From a virus (lineage: Duplodnaviria; Caudoviricetes): a DNA stretch of 40,589 nucleotides. Below the pieces are notes generated by a model. The model ran no database searches and was not told the origin of the DNA. It saw only the letters and a list, made by a program, of their open reading frames with translations. Position numbers and translations under genes: made by a program. Location of the stretch: IMG/VR virus record IMGVR_UViG_3300048072_000105, positions 1 through 40,589 of that record; one strand, 5' to 3'. Each line of letters begins with the position of its first letter. Positions within the stretch are counted from its first letter, which is position 1. This document shows positions 318 through 29,289 of the stretch, piece by piece.

Positions 318-407
318 ATTGGCAGCCCTGTCAAGCCCGGCAGCCAGTTCTGGCGAAACCGCAAGTTGCGACCTACATGGAACTCAAATTTCCGGGGCGA
401 TGTCCGA

Positions 408-1349
408 ATGAGCGAACCTTCCACCGACCAGAAGATTTTTCGTGCCCTCAGCCTGGATGGCGGGGGCGCGAAGGGATTCTACACGCTCGGTGCTCTGAAG
501 GAGATTGAAGCGCTGGTCGGCTGCCGTCTGTGCGAAAAGTTTGACCTGATCTACGGGACTTCCACCGGCGCCATTATTACGGCGCTGCTCGGCCTGGGAA
601 AATCCGCGGATGAAATCGAGGCGCTTTACAGGCTGCGCGTCGTGTCGGTTATGGGCGAGGTGCTGCCGCGCAGGAAGACCGCCGCTCTCGAAGCGCTCGC
701 AAAGGAGATTTTCGGCGAGCTGAGGTTCGACGCTTTCAAGACCGACATCGGGATTGTCGGGACACGGTGGGAGGATGACCGCCCCATCATCTTCAAGACA
801 AACCCCGGGCAGGCATTCACGGGGGCAGAGACTTTCGAACCGGGCTTCGGCTGCACCATTGCCGATGCCGTGGTCGGCTCCTGCTCGGCCTATCCGTTCT
901 TCCTGAAGAAGATGGTGACGACCGGCCGCGGCGACAAAGTCGAAGTTCGTGACGGCGGCTTCGTCGCAAACAACCCGACGCTCTACGCCATCGCGGATGC
1001 CACCGGCTCGCTGGGCCACGCGAACGAGAACGTGCGTGTGGTGAGCGTCGGCGTCGGCGAATACCCAGCACCAAAGCTGCCCGCGACGAGCGCGCGGAAG
1101 TGGTTCAGCAAGTGGCCCACCGTAAAGTTCGCGCAACGAGTGCTGGAGATTAACACGCAGTCGATGGACGAACTGCGGCGGGTGCTCTTCCGGGGCGTTC
1201 CTACCGTCCGCATCAACACGAAATACACGCAGCCCGAAATGGCGACGGACATGCTCGAAGCCGACATGAATAAGCTGTCGAAGCTATGGAGCCGCGGCCG
1301 GGATTCCGCGCGCGAGCAAGAAGCGCAGCTCAAAGACTATCTGCTTTAG
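408..1349 (+). CDS. capE: Patatin-like phospholipase, CBASS effector (CapE/CapV-like)
   Basis: DGGGAKG oxyanion loop, GTSTG catalytic Ser motif, DGGFVANNP catalytic Asp motif; 10 nt upstream of a CD-NTase. Start moved to the ATG at 408. Confidence 0.88.
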   Translation: MSEPSTDQKIFRALSLDGGGAKGFYTLGALKEIEALVGCRLCEKFDLIYGTSTGAIITALLGLGKSADEIEALYRLRVVSVMGEVLPRRKTAALEALAKEIFGELRFDAFKTDIGIVGTRWEDDRPIIFKTNPGQAFTGAETFEPGFGCTIADAVVGSCSAYPFFLKKMVTTGRGDKVEVRDGGFVANNPTLYAIADATGSLGHANENVRVVSVGVGEYPAPKLPATSARKWFSKWPTVKFAQRVLEINTQSMDELRRVLFRGVPTVRINTKYTQPEMATDMLEADMNKLSKLWSRGRDSAREQEAQLKDYLL

Positions 1350-3155: not shown

Positions 3156-3316
3156 ATCTACTTGGTGAGCTGGTCTATCAGCTCTGCTATCGACACTCCC
3201 TCACGCGCGGCGCGTATCGCTAGGCGGCGGTGTGTCGTCGGATAAAGTCGCACCTGCTTGATTGCTATTTGTCCCATGTCCGAATCGTAACACGCGCAAA
3301 AATACACACCGGGGAG

Positions 3317-3359
3317 TTATCCCCATGTCGGCGTCTGCATACGGTTGCTGTGGTACAAT
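3317..3359 (+). promoter_or_regulatory. Putative promoter: DnaA-box-like TTATCCCCA plus extended -10 TGGTACAAT
   Basis: Nonamer at 3317-3325, TACAAT at 3354-3359, upstream of ORFs 3401 and 3641. Confidence 0.5.
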
Positions 3360-3640: not shown

Positions 3641-4450
3641 ATGCAACCTCCGAAAAAGCAGACGTTCGATGTCGTTCCCGCAGGCAACCACGTCGCACGC
3701 CTCTATCAGATTATTCATATCGGCACCGTCCTAACCATCGGCCAATTTGGCGAAAAGATGCAGGACAAAGTCCGCCTCACGTTCGAGCTCTGCAATGAGA
3801 AAAAAGAGTTCAAGGCTGGCGAGGGAGAGAAGCCGTTTTCTGTCTCCCGCGAGTTCACCTACTCGTATCATTTAAAAGGTTTGCTGCGGCCGTTCGTAGA
3901 CGGCATGACCGGCACCAAAATGCGTGACGATGAGTTCCCCGACTTGGAAGCACTGCTCGGTGATGCGTGCCTTCTCAACGTCGTACATGACGTTAAGGAG
4001 ACCGGCACCTACGCCAACATTCAGAACGCTTCTCCGCTGCCGAAGGGCATGGAAGCTCCGGCGCTCGTCAACGAAACGCGCATATTCGACATCAACACCA
4101 TCACGCAGGAAGAGCTCGTCAAACTCCCGGAGTTTATCCAGAAGAAGATGCGCTCCAGCGAGGAGTATGCGGCCCGCTTTTCGGGTGCTGGTGAAGAAGA
4201 AGTCGGGGGAGAACTTCTCCCAAAAATCGCGCCTACCACTTCCGGACCGCAGAAGAAGCCGGGCGTGGTCGTGCAGGCAGAAATGAAGGCCGACAAGGAG
4301 AAGAAAGAAATCTACGTGCTCTGCGATGAAATCGCACAAGTTCCTCTTCTCTCCGACAAAGAGCACAACGATTACATCTTCAGCAACACGGGACTGGTGT
4401 TCGGGCAAGCACCAGCCGAGACCATCATCGAGCGTCTGAAGGCTCTCTAA
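3641..4450 (+). CDS. Phage ssDNA-binding/replication-associated protein (NGO0469/DUF669-like)
   Basis: VPAGNHVARLYQIIHIGT, KVRLTFEL, DLEALLGDACLLNVVH and YANI motifs with an acidic linker; followed by a terminator. Confidence 0.6.
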   Translation: MQPPKKQTFDVVPAGNHVARLYQIIHIGTVLTIGQFGEKMQDKVRLTFELCNEKKEFKAGEGEKPFSVSREFTYSYHLKGLLRPFVDGMTGTKMRDDEFPDLEALLGDACLLNVVHDVKETGTYANIQNASPLPKGMEAPALVNETRIFDINTITQEELVKLPEFIQKKMRSSEEYAARFSGAGEEEVGGELLPKIAPTTSGPQKKPGVVVQAEMKADKEKKEIYVLCDEIAQVPLLSDKEHNDYIFSNTGLVFGQAPAETIIERLKAL

Positions 4451-4498: not shown

Positions 4499-4529
4499 AA
4501 AGGCCCCGCGGCGAACGGCGGGGCTTTTT
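4499..4529 (+). terminator. Rho-independent terminator
   Basis: AAAGGCCCCGC-loop-GCGGGGCTTTTT after the 3641..4450 gene. Confidence 0.7.
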
Positions 4530-4530
4530 G

Positions 4531-4577
4531 CTATCCACACCCTCACGCTTGGCGCTTTGCGGACTGGACCGCATACT
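4531..4577 (+). promoter_or_regulatory. Putative sigma70 promoter with upstream DnaA-box-like nonamer
   Basis: CTATCCACA (4531-4539), -35 TTGGCG (4549-4554), 17-nt spacer, -10 CATACT (4572-4577); aligns without gaps to the promoter at 23816-23862. Confidence 0.6.
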
Positions 4578-4583
4578 CAGTGC

Positions 4584-4965
4584 ATGACCAGTTGCATGGT
4601 ACAATTTCATAAGCAGGTTTCCGCCTGCGCGCCATGCAACGGCGTCATACTTACATAGGGCCACTCCGCAAGGGGTGGCCTGCGTAATTTCACCACTGCA
4701 TCCCTGCACGTCCGCCCCGCTCAACGGACGAAAAACAAAAAGCGCCAAAACCAAAAGCTCGCTTCAGGTTCTGTTGCGAAAGGAGGGAAAACCAGTTGAC
4801 GACTCTGGCCCTCCCATCTGAACAGCATCGGAAGGAGAGGTCTCAGGGACACAGCCACACACGCCCGCGCCACCGGCCTCAGTTTCTCAACTCAGGGGAA
4901 AAGTCGGGCGCTACGCATCCGCCGAAAGTACGCTGTGTATGGGTTCCTCCGCCCCTTGGCCTCGG
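4584..4965 (+). ncRNA. Candidate large structured ncRNA, family not recognised
   Basis: No convincing ORF; nested stems 4584-4599/4632-4648, 4659-4667/4672-4680 (GCAA tetraloop), 4709-4714/4725-4730, 4782-4787/4809-4814, 4849-4855/4932-4938, 4862-4867/4905-4910; first stem begins at the predicted TSS. Confidence 0.5.
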
Positions 4966-5052
4966 GCGTTAAATTTTGCTTAATGAATCTTGAGTTCTCC
5001 TGCTAACAGGAGTCTTGTGCGCGGCTCTGATTCGGTGCGGGTAAGGAAAGTC

Positions 5053-6024
5053 ATGGGCCTGAGCTCCCTGGAATTATGTGCGGGCGCGGGCGGCCAAGCG
5101 ATTGGCCTGGAAGCGGCCGGATACGAGCACGAAGGCGTCGTGGAGATTGACCGCGACTGCTGCAACACGCTTAGGCTGAACCGCCCCGCCTGGAACGTTG
5201 TCGAAGGCGATATGAAGAAGCTGAAGGGGGCGCCGTTCAAGGGCATCGACCTCTTCGCTGCCGGGCTTCCCTGTCCCCCGTTCTCCATTGCCGGGAAGCA
5301 GCTCGGCGAGAAGGATGAGCGCAACCTGTTCCCCGCGGCCCTCCGTCTTATCGACGAGACACGGCCGCGCGCCATCATGATTGAGAACGTCCGCGGGTTC
5401 CTCGAAGCGGGCTTCCTGGACTACCGCGAGAAGCTCCGGGACCGCCTCTACAAGATGGGCTACCTGGCCGCGTGGCGCATCCTGAACGCTCCCGACTTCG
5501 GCGTCCCTCAGCTCCGCCCGCGCGTCATCATCGTGGCCCTCCAGCGGGACATTTGGGACCGCTTTGACTGGCCGCAGGTGCTCCCGCGCAACCCCATAAC
5601 CGTAGGCAAGGCCCTGTATCCGTTTATGGCCTCTCGGGGCTGGACCGGCGCCGAAAAGTGGCGCGACCACGCAGACGACATTGCCCCGACCATCGTGGGC
5701 GGTTCCAAGAAGCATGGCGGGCCGGACCTCGGGCCGACGCGGGCGAAGCGCGCCTGGGCGTCGCTCGGGGTGGACGGCATGGGCATCGCTGACATGGCTC
5801 CGGGTCCTGACGCGCCACGGGACCACGTTCCACGGCTGACGGTACCTATGGTGGCAAAGCTCCAGGGCTTCCCGGAGGACTGGAAGATTTCCGGCCGGAA
5901 GACTGCGGCCTACCGGCAGATCGGAAACGCATTCCCGCCGCCGGTCGCGCAAGCCGTCGCGATGAAGATACAAGCCGCACTGACCACCCGGCATGTCTTC
6001 CGCGTCGTGAAGAGCGCGGCTTAG
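5053..6024 (+). CDS. DNA (cytosine-5) methyltransferase, M.NaeI/M.NgoMIV-like (predicted GCCGGC)
   Basis: Motif I LCAGAGG, IV GLPCPPFS, VI IENVRG, VIII PQLRPR, X RQIGNAFP; target-recognition region APTIVGGSKKHGGPDLGPTRAKRAW resembles GCCGGC-specific enzymes. AAGGA RBS before ATG 5053. Confidence 0.92.
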   Translation: MGLSSLELCAGAGGQAIGLEAAGYEHEGVVEIDRDCCNTLRLNRPAWNVVEGDMKKLKGAPFKGIDLFAAGLPCPPFSIAGKQLGEKDERNLFPAALRLIDETRPRAIMIENVRGFLEAGFLDYREKLRDRLYKMGYLAAWRILNAPDFGVPQLRPRVIIVALQRDIWDRFDWPQVLPRNPITVGKALYPFMASRGWTGAEKWRDHADDIAPTIVGGSKKHGGPDLGPTRAKRAWASLGVDGMGIADMAPGPDAPRDHVPRLTVPMVAKLQGFPEDWKISGRKTAAYRQIGNAFPPPVAQAVAMKIQAALTTRHVFRVVKSAA

Positions 6025-6803
6025 TCTTCCTCCGCCTTGCGCTTGGCCTTATTTTTCCGCTCGAAGTCCTTGATGAGAAACTGGTGGTTCTCCGGTAGCG
6101 GTTTCCATTCCTCCAGCATGTAGGCGGCCTGCCACTTGCCGGACGGCGTCTTGGAGCGGGTCGCTTTTATCTTCATGCCGATGACCGGGTAGCGCAGCTC
6201 GCGGAGCCGCTTTTGCCAGTCCTCCTGGAAGTCGTTTACGTTCGCGACGAACTCCAGAAGCCACGACGGCACGGCTTCGCCTTTGTGCATGCGCAGAATC
6301 TCGGCGATGCGCGCGTAGACACTTTCTAGCTTCACAATCTTCTGCATCTCGCTGTCGTCGAACGACGCGAAGAAGTCCTTCTTGCCGCCGTTGCAGAGCT
6401 GGCAGAGCGCCCAGAGGTTATCGAGCGTCGTCTCGCCGCCCCACGTCTGCGGCACCTTGTGGTCGGCCTGAAGCTTCACGCCGTCTTCTGCGACGGTCTG
6501 TCCGCACATCTGGCAGCGGCCGTGCGCGGCGTTGAGCACCGCGGCGCGAAGTTTGGCGTTAATGACGCCGCTATCTTTGGCGGGCTCTGCCTTCTCGCCC
6601 TTCAGGACGTATCGGCCGCCTTTCTCCAGCGGCACGTCGTAATATTTCCGGAGGTCGCGGACGCGCCGGTCGAGGTGCTGTTGAATGCCGGGGTCGTTCG
6701 GGAATTTCTCCCGGATTTGGTAGATGGTGAGTCCTTCGGGGTGGCTTCTGAGAAGCTCTAAAATCTGCTCGTGTAGGGCTGAGAGGCCCTCGTGCTGAGC
6801 CAT
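6021..6803 (-). CDS. HNH endonuclease with N-terminal HTH-like region, putative cognate restriction enzyme
   Basis: RCQMCG...LQADHKVP...NLWALCQLCNGGK HNH/Zn motif; convergent with the methylase, 4-nt overlap. Confidence 0.8.
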   Translation of the reverse strand: MAQHEGLSALHEQILELLRSHPEGLTIYQIREKFPNDPGIQQHLDRRVRDLRKYYDVPLEKGGRYVLKGEKAEPAKDSGVINAKLRAAVLNAAHGRCQMCGQTVAEDGVKLQADHKVPQTWGGETTLDNLWALCQLCNGGKKDFFASFDDSEMQKIVKLESVYARIAEILRMHKGEAVPSWLLEFVANVNDFQEDWQKRLRELRYPVIGMKIKATRSKTPSGKWQAAYMLEEWKPLPENHQFLIKDFERKNKAKRKAEED

Positions 6804-6868
6804 TGGCCGCCCGAATCTTCCCGAAAAGGTGCGGTACCGTGACTCCGCACGCCAAAAGAGTCGAGTCG

Positions 6869-7279
6869 ATGGATAAGCTGACGCCCGAGCGCCGCTCCGA
6901 AAATATGCGGCGCATCAAAAGCAAGGACATGAAGCCGGAGCTGGCCGTGCGGCGGCTCGTCCACGGGCTTGGCTTCCGCTACCGCCTCCACCGCAAGGAT
7001 TTGCCGGGGAAGCCGGACCTGGTGTTCGGCCCAAAGCGCAAGGTCATCTTCGTCCACGGTTGCTTCTGGCACGGTCATGAGCTGGAAGGCTGTCTGGATG
7101 CCCGGAAGCCGAAGTCGAATACCGGCTACTGGAATCCGAAACTGGCCCGCAACAAGGAGCGAGATGCCGAGCGCGTGACTGCGCTCGAAGCTGACGGGTG
7201 GAAGGTGCTGACGGTGTGGGAGTGCGAAACGAAGAACGAAGCGGCTGTCAAAAAACGGCTCCGCCGCTTCCTCAGATAG
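6869..7279 (+). CDS. vsr: Very short patch repair endonuclease
   Basis: MDKLTPERRSENMRRIKSKDMKPE, LPGKPDLVF, IFVHGCFWHGH and GWKVLTVWEC motifs; next to a C5 methylase. Confidence 0.93.
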   Translation: MDKLTPERRSENMRRIKSKDMKPELAVRRLVHGLGFRYRLHRKDLPGKPDLVFGPKRKVIFVHGCFWHGHELEGCLDARKPKSNTGYWNPKLARNKERDAERVTALEADGWKVLTVWECETKNEAAVKKRLRRFLR

Positions 7280-23862: not shown

Positions 23863-24059
23863 CCGGATTGCTTTTCCAGAACGACCACCACGGGCCGCAC
23901 GCGGAGCAAGTTGACGTTCGCCTTCACCGCACTGATGCCGCCTTGCATGTCGAAGTGAATCTCAGCGCTGCCGCCCTTGATGCCGAAGACACCGCAGTCG
24001 AGGAGCAACTGAATCGCCTCCGCCTCCTGCTTTGAAACGGTGAGAGTTACTGGTTCCAT
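23817..24059 (-). CDS. Small hypothetical protein
   Basis: 80 aa from MEPVTLT, overlapping the terL stop; IKGGSAEIHFD motif. Confidence 0.55.
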   Translation of the reverse strand: MEPVTLTVSKQEAEAIQLLLDCGVFGIKGGSAEIHFDMQGGISAVKANVNLLRVRPVVVVLEKQSGYPHKQTLIPNDPTA

Positions 24060-25630
24060 CCGTTTGCATCGGCCATAGCATCTGATAATTCGTCCAGCGA
24101 TCCCACAACGTTGTCCCGGCCGATAAACGGCTTGTCGCCGCTCTTGCGCTCGGGCAGTACCACGCCGCTCCCGGCGCCCAGCGTCGCAAGGTAATAGTAC
24201 AGCGTGGCGAAGACGAAGTGATCCTCGCCGGTGGTGCTGTCCCACTCATAGCTTTCAATCCCCTTCGTATCCGTCACCTTGACGCGACGGAGCGTCTCCC
24301 AGTGCTTCAGGTAGCGCTTCAACTCCTGGTCGGACGGCAGGCCGAATAGAATCTTGGCGTTGAGTATCTGGTCGATGAGCTGGTCAAGGATGCGGTTGCG
24401 GTTGCTGTAGACGATGCCTTTTTTGTCGTTCTCGCCCCACCACACAATCGTTTTCGGGTTGTTCTTATTCTCCTGGAAGAAGGACATGAGCGCCGTGCGG
24501 TAGTGCTCGACGTAGTACTTGGACATGGTGTTGTCCGGCATGGCGTCGATGACGAGCATAGGCTTGTGCAGCTTCATGAGGTCGTCCAGCTCCTCCCATT
24601 TGGTGAAGCGGCCTACCTGCGTGACGCCCAGCTCGGTGCCCAGGACGAAGTGCTTGATGTTGCCCACATCCACGCCAAGGAACCACTGCTTGCCCTTGCT
24701 GAGGTCTTTCGGCGTCCAGTTGTCGAGGATCGTGGAGGCGGACACCCGCAAGTCACCGGGGTTGTACGGCTCGCCCAGGACGAAGTTATAAAAATACTCC
24801 TGGTCGCCTTCACTATCGGCAATGATTTCAGCCGCGGTAATCCACGGGGCCATGAGGTGCGAGATATGGTAGCCGCTGATGGTGGCGCCGGGGTTCTGCG
24901 CGACCCACTTGCCCTTCCGGCGTTCCTCGGTCGTCAGCTCCTTCTTGCACGCTACGCACTGGAAGCATTTGCGCACCAGGTCGATGCTCTCCGGCCAGCG
25001 CAATATCTGCTCATGCCCGCAACCGGCGCAGGCAATCGTCCATTCCTTCTGGTCGGATTTCTTCCATGCTTGGTCTATGGCGTCCTTCTCGGTGGTGGGG
25101 TTGCTGAACAGCCAGCGCCCTTTGAACCGCGACGCCTTGGTGCGTGATTTATACGTCTCCAGCATGGCCTGGTTGGACCGCGACGCCTCGTCGTGAATGT
25201 TCACGTCCGAAGAGGTCATAATGGCCGCCGTCTTGCTGACGGTGCCTTTGAAGAAGAGAAAGCGGCCGTTCAGCTCCTTGCGCTCGATGTTGTCGGTCGG
25301 GAGCCCGGCGAACTCGTCATGGTTGGCCGAAATGAGCTTGTTGGTCTTGGAGGATACGAACTCGCTCACGTCGCTGTCGGTCGGGAACGTGTAGATGATG
25401 TTCCAGCCGAACGTCTTGAGTGCGAAGAGCGCTTTAAGGTTGAAGACGACGCTGCCGCCGACCTGCGAGCATTTCTTTATGACGATCTCCTGGCTCCAGT
25501 CAGTGAGGATGTCCAGGAGGAATAGCCGGTCACGGAAGGAGAGAGCTTCGCCTTTCTCGTTCTTAATCCCCTTCTTGACTATCCAGCCAAGGATGGAGAG
25601 CTCGGCTATGTCAGGGGTGTTGTTCTCCAT
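24047..25630 (-). CDS. terL: Terminase large subunit (lambda GpA-like)
   Basis: IVIKKCSQVGGS Walker-A variant, IHDE Walker B, FSNPT, CAGC/CVAC Zn motifs, LGVDVG nuclease motif, EDHFVFA. Confidence 0.88.
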   Translation of the reverse strand: MENNTPDIAELSILGWIVKKGIKNEKGEALSFRDRLFLLDILTDWSQEIVIKKCSQVGGSVVFNLKALFALKTFGWNIIYTFPTDSDVSEFVSSKTNKLISANHDEFAGLPTDNIERKELNGRFLFFKGTVSKTAAIMTSSDVNIHDEASRSNQAMLETYKSRTKASRFKGRWLFSNPTTEKDAIDQAWKKSDQKEWTIACAGCGHEQILRWPESIDLVRKCFQCVACKKELTTEERRKGKWVAQNPGATISGYHISHLMAPWITAAEIIADSEGDQEYFYNFVLGEPYNPGDLRVSASTILDNWTPKDLSKGKQWFLGVDVGNIKHFVLGTELGVTQVGRFTKWEELDDLMKLHKPMLVIDAMPDNTMSKYYVEHYRTALMSFFQENKNNPKTIVWWGENDKKGIVYSNRNRILDQLIDQILNAKILFGLPSDQELKRYLKHWETLRRVKVTDTKGIESYEWDSTTGEDHFVFATLYYYLATLGAGSGVVLPERKSGDKPFIGRDNVVGSLDELSDAMADANGWNQ

Positions 25631-25640
25631 TGAGTAATGC

Positions 25641-26099
25641 TTACTCTGCGCGCTCCTTGTCCTCCTGCATCGCACGCCACTGCTGCGGGTATTTGATGCG
25701 GAAGCGCGGATCGTCAGGCTGTAGCAGGTCGTCGGCGAGCGCTAACCGCTGCTGCTTGAGCATTGCGGATTCCATGTAGTACGGGTCGGTGTGCTTGTCG
25801 CTGATGTGCCGTATGGCCTTGTGCCCCTTCGGACAGTGGCCGACGAAGAACGCAAACAACGGCAGTATCGCATAGGCGCAGCCCTTATCTACGTCGAACC
25901 CCATTGCGAACGTCTTGAGCGCCGGGGCTTCAAAGTCAGCGTTGCAGGCTCGGCACCAAAAACCCATCTGCGTCTGCTCGGGCGCGTCTTGATATTCCTG
26001 GTAACGCAACTGCTCGCGTTCAATGCGCCGTTTATCGGCCGCGCGTTCCTCGCGGTTGCGCTTAACACGTTTGCGTAATGTATCCGAGTGGTTGTCCAT
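25641..26099 (-). CDS. Hypothetical Zn-binding protein
   Basis: FWCRAC...CPKGH motif; start at MDNHSD. Confidence 0.55.
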   Translation of the reverse strand: MDNHSDTLRKRVKRNREERAADKRRIEREQLRYQEYQDAPEQTQMGFWCRACNADFEAPALKTFAMGFDVDKGCAYAILPLFAFFVGHCPKGHKAIRHISDKHTDPYYMESAMLKQQRLALADDLLQPDDPRFRIKYPQQWRAMQEDKERAE

Positions 26100-27725: not shown

Positions 27726-28391
27726 TTAACTGTGCGCAGCCCATTGCCCCACAATATTTTCAGCAAGATCATCATTGCAGACAAGGTTGGACTGCGTTTC
27801 TAAATATTCTGCGAACTTAAAATTGGCAGGTCGCATAAGGCGGGTGGCGACGAGAAGTATGTCCTTCGCGGGAACGCCTTTCCTGGTTGAATGTGCAAAT
27901 CCATTTCTGGCATCCATCAATTGCCGCGCATCGCGTCGATAGTCCGCTGGCAGAATGTCTTTGAACACTTTCTCCCAAAGTCGGTTCACTAGTTGCAGTG
28001 AAGCTAACAACTCTAGACTAGCAACCACCTCATCCCACGCTGCCTCACGTCCGGGCACCGAGTTATATGTCTTGGCAATTCGCCCTCGTGCGCCGTCGTA
28101 ATCCTCCAGCGCGGTCCAGCACATCGACCACCACTCCGGACCGAAGCTCTTAACCGCTTGCCAGCAAACGTACTCCGGCAGAGCCAGGGTAAGTTCGTAC
28201 AGTGCTTGGTGTACGATGGCGGCATTTCTTGCCCGTACAGCCAAGATGAGAGCTTCGGGGTCCTTAGCGGCAATCTCCTTAAGCCCAGCGCTCGGGCCGA
28301 CAGCGAGAGGCGCGTCGCCTAATGCCACATCGGCGGATAGTCGGCGAGCCATAGGAAACGGAGGGGGACGACGTTCGGGAATCAGGTTCAT
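27726..28391 (-). CDS. Swt1-like HEPN domain protein
   Basis: WEKVFKDIL...QLMDARNGFAH contains the HEPN Rx4H motif; bounded by hairpin terminators. Confidence 0.55.
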   Translation of the reverse strand: MNLIPERRPPPFPMARRLSADVALGDAPLAVGPSAGLKEIAAKDPEALILAVRARNAAIVHQALYELTLALPEYVCWQAVKSFGPEWWSMCWTALEDYDGARGRIAKTYNSVPGREAAWDEVVASLELLASLQLVNRLWEKVFKDILPADYRRDARQLMDARNGFAHSTRKGVPAKDILLVATRLMRPANFKFAEYLETQSNLVCNDDLAENIVGQWAAHS

Positions 28392-28428
28392 CGGAATTTT
28401 GTAGCAAAAAAAAGCCCCCCGAAGGAGG

Positions 28429-29289
28429 CTATGCAGCTTCTGCAACCTTCTCCGAAAAGGCCCGGAGGTAGTCGGCCGCCTGTGACGCTTTGCTCGCCGC
28501 GGTGAAGATGGCGCGGTCGTCCTCCTTCAAGAGCTTTATCCAACTAGCGATGTACTCGGCGTGCCGGAGTTTGCCTTCCACCTGGAGGTGAGCACAGAGG
28601 AACGCGGCCCCGAGCTCTGCGACCAGTTCTTCCGCGGCGTATGCCTTGGTGCGGAAGCGGCCGGTCATGTCACGGTCCAGGCGATGCTTGGCGCCCGTCC
28701 AGTGGCAACACTCATGCAGGGCCGTTGCGAGATAGTGCGCGCGGCTCTCGAAGCTCTCCGGCGTCGGCAGGGAGATTAAGTCGCCGTTGCCCTGGTAGTA
28801 CGCCCGGTCACCGCCGTGCCGGATGTAGGCGCCGGTAGCGTTGATGAAGAGCTGGGCATTGTCTTGGAGCACCGGGAGTGGCTTAGGCTCTTCGAGTACG
28901 GCCTTCGGCAATCCCTCCATCTGCCACTCGTTGAAGACGTTAAAGGTGCGGAGCATCCCGATCTGCTTCTCCACATCCTCGTCGTCCTTGAACGTTAGCT
29001 TCTTGGTAAACACCACAGTGGTGCTCTTTTCACCGGCGCGGACTTGCGCTCCGGCCGCCTGGGCCTGCTTGTAGGTAAGCCAGCCGTGCGTTGGGTGGCC
29101 ACGCGCGTGCGCGGCGGCCCACAGTATCGGAATGTTGATTCCTGAGTACGACCGATTGCTTGCCGCGTTGAACGGGAGCAATCCGCCACGGGCGCCGCAT
29201 TTCCACGGTTTTGTCCAAGGTGCAACTCCTGCTTCTAAGTCTGCGATGATGGATTGCGTGACTTGCTCGTAGAGCGCGTCCATGCGCAT
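28429..29289 (-). CDS. ardC: ArdC antirestriction protein (ssDNA-binding + zincin domain)
   Basis: LEAGVAPWTKPW, YSGIN, WLTYKQA, VRAGEK, FNVFN, LHECCHWTG, YAAEELVAELGAAFL motifs; AGGAGG RBS. Confidence 0.92.
   Translation of the reverse strand: MRMDALYEQVTQSIIADLEAGVAPWTKPWKCGARGGLLPFNAASNRSYSGINIPILWAAAHARGHPTHGWLTYKQAQAAGAQVRAGEKSTTVVFTKKLTFKDDEDVEKQIGMLRTFNVFNEWQMEGLPKAVLEEPKPLPVLQDNAQLFINATGAYIRHGGDRAYYQGNGDLISLPTPESFESRAHYLATALHECCHWTGAKHRLDRDMTGRFRTKAYAAEELVAELGAAFLCAHLQVEGKLRHAEYIASWIKLLKEDDRAIFTAASKASQAADYLRAFSEKVAEAA

Follow-up and report, generated by a model that had tools for sequence, protein, structure and literature searches.

A conserved family of predicted pseudoknotted phage RNAs, with cargo in some of its members

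Introduction

What does an ORF-poor gap filled with nested stems encode in the genome of a temperate phage? A sequence-only reading of IMG/VR record IMGVR_UViG_3300048072_000105, which is considered here over its whole 40,589 nt (the window), proposed that positions 4584-4965 hold an undescribed structured RNA of about 380 nt with its own promoter or, alternatively, a long 5' leader of the methylase gene. We found that the element is real but shorter than first claimed, running from 4584 to about 4910 (about 330 nt). It is very probably a conserved and structured phage RNA that has not been catalogued.

The locus and its setting

As a record, the window is rated a complete provirus (40.6 kb); its genes include an integrase, a terminase, a major head protein and an M23 peptidase. 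The stretch is present in bioreactor metagenome runs, and 14 of these may be its source. Its nearest prophage relatives with a named host are found in an alphaproteobacterial MAG and in a Pseudolabrys MAG, both of one family. The RNA gap is flanked by a phrog_862 gene and by a block of C5 methylase, HNH and Vsr genes (Table 1). In the window, as in G001 and G004, the RNA lies within an accessory gap where the early genes meet the convergent end of the late operon. A search for a relative of the protein encoded upstream of the RNA found none. The methylase, the convergent HNH nuclease and Vsr (5053-7279) form a possible restriction-modification block, which is about 95% identical in a relative from a moss metagenome. 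Further upstream, 2.3 kb 5' of the RNA, lies a prophage-borne two-gene CBASS (patatin phospholipase and CD-NTase, 366-2241), and this CD-NTase would be the CdnE of which the sequence-only reading speaks. Two other regions can be mentioned. A divergent control region (3158-3359) contains a 49-aa ORF (3307-3158), ribbon-helix-helix-like by eye, as well as TTATCCCCA (at 3317) and, starting at 3351, TGGTACAAT as an extended -10 box; and a Swt1-like HEPN gene adjoins an ArdC-type anti-restriction gene at 27726-29289.

Table 1. Features of the RNA locus and of neighbouring genes, in window positions
Feature	Position	Strand	Basis or remark
Patatin effector	366-1349	+	Half of two-gene CBASS; unlinked to RNA
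CD-NTase, 293 aa	1360-2241	+	PADLOC cyclase, E 3.8e-112; unlinked to RNA
Upstream phrog_862 gene	3641-4450		Closed by terminator-like hairpin
Terminator-like hairpin and T5	4503-4529	+	Sequence; scan lists stem on minus strand only
Element taken to be DnaA-box-like, 5' of promoter	4530-4539	+	Similar motif upstream of most complete homologues
Predicted sigma70-type promoter	4549-4577	+	TTGGCG (4549-54), 17 nt, CATACT (4572-77)
P1, long 5' hairpin	4584-4648	+	Varies between subfamilies
P2, GCAA-tetraloop hairpin	4659-4680	+	Folding and homologues (by eye)
P3, 5' strand	4696-4706	+	Pairs 4844-4854; alphaproteobacterial-type subgroup
pk1, predicted H-type pseudoknot	4709-4744	+	Stem 4709-14/4725-30; loop 4718-21 with 4741-44; A-rich linker
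A-rich linker	4745-4757	+	Cargo or branch site in relatives; empty in window
Conserved core	4758-4837	+	Homologue alignment
P5	4758-65/4831-37	+	Core
P6	4767-75/4821-29	+	Core
Internal loop GCGAAA/CATCTG	4776-81/4815-20	+	Core
P7	4782-87/4809-14	+	Core
P8	4792-95/4805-08	+	Core
L8, 9-nt loop	4796-4804	+	Core
P3, 3' strand	4844-4854	+	Pairs 4696-4706
Conserved 3' tail	4892-4909	+	Conservation stops here
pk3 (probable)	4893-96 with 4817-20	+	Homologue pairing
pk2	4902-06 with L8 4800-04	+	Covariation
Unconserved 3' stretch	4912-4978	+	Homologue comparison
C5 DNA methylase, outside RNA	5053-6024	+	Likely start 5053
HNH and Vsr	6021-6803 and 6803-7279	convergent	3' of methylase

Homologues and their distribution

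We identified 29 homologous loci besides the window, ranging from 30 to 66% G+C, in prophages of Alphaproteobacteria, in contigs from soil and other metagenomes, and in AT-rich phages (30-45% G+C). Four loci are left out of this count: L181, which nearly duplicates L166, L390, which nearly duplicates L356, L360, and L424, which is degenerate (38.7 bits). Several of the homologues counted are cut by contig ends or truncated. The searches differed in their yield. A 15-nt pattern returned a single true homologue among 28 matches, carrying a 90-aa ORF inside a mid-RNA hairpin; three other pattern scans (1/5, 1/119 and 1/27) always led to this same contig and another one gave nothing. Among the loci found with the core pattern, 13 of the 68 from metagenomes and 3 of the 96 from genomes also scored on a profile, DNA searches of the host family (401 and 301 genomes) added three distant copies and one tail-only fragment, and a relaxed pattern gave 47 viral matches, of which 12 show pairing in P6 as well as in P7. 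The latter come mostly from AT-rich phages and have promoters of the TTGACA/TATAAT type. Since the search patterns fixed TGCGAAAG and neighbouring core bases, and since these 12 AT-rich or distant loci were chosen for their P6/P7 pairing, those invariants and pairings are partly obtained by construction; the pseudoknots, for their part, played no role in the choice.

Matches were found in 5 of 151 genomes of the family of G001, among them the doubtful G070, and in 3 of 401 genomes of the order, where G002 is the sole real one. BLAST against 50,697 phage records gave no match to the window and, with L372, merely short chance matches; against plasmids, it gave a single 23-nt match. A housekeeping RNA was considered and rejected for the genomes searched: the phylum of G792 (151 genomes) gave one weak match (21.9 bits), which by eye is no homologue. 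Phage-like settings were seen for G018 and for the viral records; the copies of G129 and G076 are surrounded by chromosomal genes and IS pieces, and that of G319 by ORFs without assignment. No gene family recurs beside the RNA among the downstream ORFs and neighbours scanned, on crude ORF calls that leave the orientation of the downstream genes uncertain in several loci.

Partial or decayed copies were also seen (L268/G003, L360/G126, L217, L424/G076), reduced to the 3' half or to the tail, with the 5' half replaced by IS66-like sequence (by eye), or with a degenerate core near an IS; the flanks of L268/G003 look alphaproteobacterial. Near the homologous RNAs of G004 and G076, we noticed TIR-domain and SIR2-STAND genes (L353 4701-6044, L441 6749-9181); those loci are defence hot spots.

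A covarying core and the limits of the element

All the stems quoted in the sequence-only reading are present where it had placed them, and its CTGTT/GGAGGG/CCAG domain turned out to be the conserved core of the homologues. In the alignment of this core (69 nt, 26 sequences, 25 of them distinct), 95.6% of the cells are paired, against 32-48% in slid controls, and 13 of the 19 base pairs are changed on both sides, a number matched by none of 500 shuffles. RNAalifold, applied to 17 sequences, likewise gave 11 of 26 pairs changed on both sides. The folding energy is a more moderate argument: folded alone, 4584-4965 has a z of -2.49, with 2 of 100 shuffles equally good, and this signal comes from the 5' half (in 120-nt windows, z reaches -2.8 to -4.5 within 4520-4760 and is close to 0 from 4730 onwards).

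The proposed 3' part did not hold. Conservation ends at 4909, and 4912-4965 is without counterpart in 25 homologues (best local score 4-8). The two stems drawn in this part, ACACAGC/GCTGTGT (4849/4932) and CGCCCG/CGGGCG (4862/4905), are unconserved, and their conserved strands pair elsewhere in the homologues, namely in P3 for the former and in pk2 for the latter. A 5-bp hairpin with TTAAATTTT (4950-4977) may be the transcript end; it is absent from the listing of the terminator scan.

Pseudoknots and long-range helices

The conserved tail returns to the core. In pk2, all five pairs between tail and L8 can form in 21 of 26 sequences (best register allowed), and the fourth pair is G-C in 10 sequences and C-G in 12. 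Cognate tails and loops pair with -8.1 kcal/mol, against -5.6 for non-cognate ones (permutation p about 1e-5, uncorrected for the kinship of the sequences, which inflates such values), and an earlier test gave a similar result. This tail-to-loop pseudoknot thus covaries. A second tail-to-core pseudoknot, pk3, is probably formed by the tail CAGA with the UCUG of the internal loop: four of four pairs are found in 17 of 28 sequences and three of four in 7 more, and L356 shows a compensation at two positions (UCUG/CAGA to UUGG/CCAG). Our pattern-based picking of the tail failed in L365 (pk2), in L356 and L361 (pk3) and in L357 and L393 (earlier tail test), and these rows were kept in the counts. 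For the internal loop, a k-turn was also considered, but we preferred pk3.

The third, upstream pseudoknot (pk1) is less firmly shown. It scored better than the average shuffle in 20 of 24 sequences, but single shuffles often equalled it; it recurs with unrelated sequences and a TAAAAC-like linker, and is clearer by eye in the homologues than in this automated test. Finally, in the G+C-rich subgroup, the long helix P3 closes the domain (cognate -14.0 versus non-cognate -11.9 kcal/mol; n=10, permutation p 0.0013, again inflated by kinship).

The 5' end and transcription

The 5' end is modular. P1, the first stem of the sequence-only reading, shows changes on both sides in L273, L031 and L166, and at least four unrelated forms of it exist among the homologues. 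By eye, L369 lacks both P1 and P2, and the moss-metagenome relative keeps 4694-7234 and has 200 other bases in place of 4530-4694. In the AT-rich homologues, P2 is followed by a T run and is then terminator-like, whereas in the window this run is degenerate (by eye); transcription of AT-rich copies could thereby end before the core. L387 carries two tandem promoter-hairpin-terminator modules, 330-170 nt 5' of its core, which suggests that P1-P2 can be a separate small transcript.

The promoter proposed earlier is partly sustained. Its boxes agree with the consensus at 8 of 12 positions, and a promoter scan of the region found none; nevertheless, YAYAAT-like boxes are seen by eye in the homologues at the same place, 6-9 nt 5' of the same ATG start. 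Likewise, the upstream terminator exists as a hairpin with a T run, which the scan lists on the other strand. Between the two lies an element that we take to be DnaA-box-like. The TGGTACAAT at 4597 was considered as an extended -10 box and rejected, as it is an internal loop of P1, kept in four homologues. From the promoter-like sites, the G-U pairs, the tetraloops and the covariation, we infer that the RNA is transcribed. In three RNA runs (X16-X18), contigs cover 4682-4908, 4677-4857, 4566-4768 and 4816-5103, and the whole phage is covered equally thinly (depth 2-6; 29 of 30 bins in X16). This even, low cover could be DNA carry-over; it gives no hint of a ROOL-like abundance and speaks neither for nor against transcription.

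Cargo and stalks in the relatives

The window copy has no cargo and no leader-like arm, and most copies are likewise without cargo. In some relatives, however, the A-rich linker is the site of an insertion: a stalk bearing an ORF in L031, L179 and L187, a tRNA-like unit in L405, and branches without ORF in L166 and L217. The cargo of L179 is a Tad2-like gene (PF11195, E 2.9e-17), that of L031 and L187 an ORF of 83-90 aa, and that of L365 and L380 an HNH gene, and L401 and L405 have tRNA-like units whose T-loop contains an extra hairpin (by eye); ARAGORN and Rfam searches do not call these units. These two units (around 2290-2450 in L405; on the minus strand, 130-380 nt upstream of the core, in L401) are tRNA-Leu-like with odd anticodon arms, and the hairpin insert that they share starts after a U and ends in G; such inserts might be core-less introns.

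The family of 83-90-aa proteins has 131 relatives, no Pfam or PHROG match and atlas scores below 0.9, and a structural model (pLDDT 66.5, best Z 5.4) did not reach the assignment of a function. The gene (MENKTT) occurs without the present core in 10 of 11 viral loci and yet lies inside a long inverted-repeat stalk in 8 of the 11, so that stalk and gene together are a separate module. Five have an rRNA-leader-like 5' arm. Among the loci concerned (L427, L430-L433, L436 and L437, around 1400-2000), L433 presents the common layout of promoter, P1, P2, pk1 and stalk with a different 3' region; and L427, L432 and L437 look like further uncatalogued structured RNAs, for which Rfam gave merely two tRNAs in L437. 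The isolate Bradyrhizobium sp. R2.2-H has a gene on record (EDE08_101628) whose protein is identical to the cargo of L187, hence a cultured carrier may exist.

The stalk arms of L031, L179 and L187 agree with fetched rRNA leaders at 11-16 of 20 nt, the best leader for each being reached by 0-1 of 300 shuffles. The 5' arm matches a stretch located 170-230 nt 5' of the fetched 16S genes in five of nine arms, the other four having no match. We take this stretch of the leaders to be boxA. The best leader-arm match in the window is 11 of 20.

Comparison with known RNAs

No Rfam family reaches its gathering score in the window, the homologues give weak matches alone, and ARAGORN finds nothing, in line with the earlier reading, which recognised no tRNA, tmRNA, intron or known riboswitch. 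For GOLLD and ROOL in particular, neither the window nor L372 gave an Rfam match, even with E allowed up to 10. In the literature that we searched, we found no description of the family; part of it may be among the 10,006 viral candidate RNAs of PMC10690425, whose supplementary alignments and models fell outside this search.

GOLLD (RF02032) and ROOL are nevertheless the closest in design, being encoded by phages or prophages, with several pseudoknots, no known protein partner and a variable linker with inserted cargo. For GOLLD, PMC12286853 describes conservation in the 3' region, variation in the 5' region and a variable linker in which tRNAs are sometimes found. Unlike GOLLD, which exceeds 800 nt, the present RNA measures about 330 nt without cargo; unlike both, it is not in tRNA arrays (one tRNA in 25 loci), and its cargo includes protein genes in a leader-like stalk. 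GOLLD and ROOL are further marked by a protein-free homo-oligomeric cage and by high abundance or a rise during lysis.

Two weaker likenesses can be set aside. Like tmRNA (RF00023), the window has a predicted H-type pseudoknot followed by an A-rich linker, but this gives 6.8 bits (model positions 56-140) against a gathering score of 47, ARAGORN finds no tmRNA, and neither tRNA-like ends nor a tag reading frame were encountered. ARRPOF (RF02933) matches the 5' part of homologue L372 with 16.3 bits (E 0.1), but its gathering score is 127.2, and the match misses the conserved core and most model positions.

What the RNA could do

As relatives hold small genes or tRNA-like pieces in their loops, the window RNA is likely a stable carrier RNA. 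Our preferred reading, to which we give a probability of roughly 45%, is that 4584 to about 4910 belongs to a phage family of predicted pseudoknotted non-coding RNAs, each a free-standing, degradation-resistant scaffold of the GOLLD/ROOL kind that would carry cargo and deliver it, the window copy being empty. Transcription would start from the predicted promoter, and the 3' tail would fold back onto the core at two places, knotting and shielding the 3' end. In cargo-bearing copies, the stalk, with its likeness to an rRNA leader-trailer helix, would attract Nus factors and serve as a substrate of RNase III, the cargo being looped out. This is modelled on the leader-trailer helices that loop out rRNA, where boxA recruits Nus factors and an RNase III site lies within the helix (PMC10250234). 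Since the core stays intact in copies without cargo, it must have a selected role of its own, most likely the binding of a host factor or a GOLLD/ROOL-like self-assembly.

In the strongest competing account, still an unlikely one, the RNA would act in cis, as a leader or as a put- or nut-like antiterminator, and control read-through from P2 or into the downstream genes, here the methylase. This account would fit the promoter-P1-P2-T-run layout of AT-rich copies, the leader-like arm of some copies, the co-directional ORFs that follow the tail shortly in many loci (at 25-120 nt in several) and the position of L369 and L404 upstream of terminase genes. However, the downstream genes of the homologues share no family; the constant same-direction neighbour expected of a riboswitch or 5' leader was not found in these loci, on crude ORF calls. 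The earlier alternative of a methylase leader fails in the same way: there is no C5 methylase among the scanned ORFs just downstream of the homologues, and in G001 the genes after the RNA are convergent with it. By eye, a new promoter-like site stands behind the tail in L364, L369 and L404, and a terminator-like hairpin in L194, L197, L224 and L393.

We hold it improbable that the RNA is a miniature mimic of pre-rRNA, with a core that imitates helix 24 of 16S rRNA and a stalk that imitates the leader, and that it is a decoy which would divert ribosome-assembly factors, initiation factors or anti-phage nucleases. The base of the core fits a descriptor (TGCGAAAG, a 6-bp stem, then C(A/G)T) that matches three of four fetched 16S genes at about position 705, is found in 2 of 20,000 shuffles and is absent from 0.78 Mb of background loci; an A-rich inner loop is common to core and helix 24, as are a 4-bp stem and a 9-nt loop; and the stalk arms of relatives, although not the window copy, resemble the pre-rRNA leader-trailer helix with boxA. 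But the comparison is post hoc and the likeness a short, motif-level one: our model R1 finds nothing at that place in four 16S loci, and the 9-nt loop is fixed in three 16S genes while it is variable and covaries with the tail in the phage RNA. We presume that a common loop-E-like module would account for the match without mimicry. In L415 (G319), the leader of the 16S gene differs from the three others and the descriptor is absent; this gene may lie on a mis-binned contig. A bolder version would be a long shot: temperate phages, from Rhizobiales prophages to AT-rich phages, would encode a miniature pre-rRNA mimic with a triple-pseudoknotted core imitating the helix-24 platform and with rRNA-leader-like stalks that use host Nus factors and RNase III to loop out and set free a swappable cargo, either anti-defence genes or tRNA-like decoys.

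Still less probable, in our view, is a new ribozyme whose substrate would be itself or its cargo, for cleavage, splicing or circularisation. The compact core with several pseudoknots and invariant unpaired bases would suit it, as would the T-loop inserts ending in G of L401 and L405 and the tail GAGG-AAAAG-UC, which we take to echo a strand of RNase P P4. Against it, the Rfam ribozyme searches gave no match, and the known folds were rejected one after the other. RNase P P4 has a bulged U after AAG, whereas here the position following the AAG pairs and covaries. In group I introns, an invariant G-C pair with a bulge in P7 forms the guanosine site; pk2 has neither, its pair types switching freely. 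Group II introns, circularly permuted or not, gave no Rfam match and no domain V hairpin by eye, and the circularly permuted ones measure about 900 nt (PMC8637638).

A guide or template RNA whose nuclease or reverse transcriptase is supplied in trans, the guide being the variable post-tail sequence, would explain why conservation ends so sharply after the 3' pseudoknot; it is very unlikely, TnpB/Cas12f (PF07282) and RVT_1 (PF00078) being found in none of five carrier phage records (four rated complete; controls positive), which also speaks against TnpB-linked OMEGA RNAs and retron/DRT RNAs, and no neighbour being common to the loci. Least probable of all is the speculation that the RNA serves the phage's own CD-NTase as ligand or sponge, in the manner of cabRNA (CBASS-activating bacteriophage RNA), which binds and activates a clade E CD-NTase: the CBASS is close and the size near the 400 nt of cabRNA, another structured phage RNA, but a cyclase relative occurs in none of five other carrier phage records (a search run without positive control), and cabRNA, according to PMC10686824, is transcribed from inside the terS-terL coding sequence and tolerates many mutations, whereas the present RNA is intergenic, far from the terminase (24047-25675), and conserved by covariation.

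Significance

Large structured phage RNAs without known function, such as GOLLD and ROOL, are an open question, and the carrier RNA that we favour comes from an uncatalogued family that joins them, with a distinctive cargo design. Its pseudoknots covary across 30-66% G+C, and its cargo is interchangeable and includes a gene of an anti-defence family. The family is compact (about 330 nt, with a 69-nt core), small enough for probing and cryo-EM, and a cultured carrier, if at hand, would make expression, processing and deletion directly testable.
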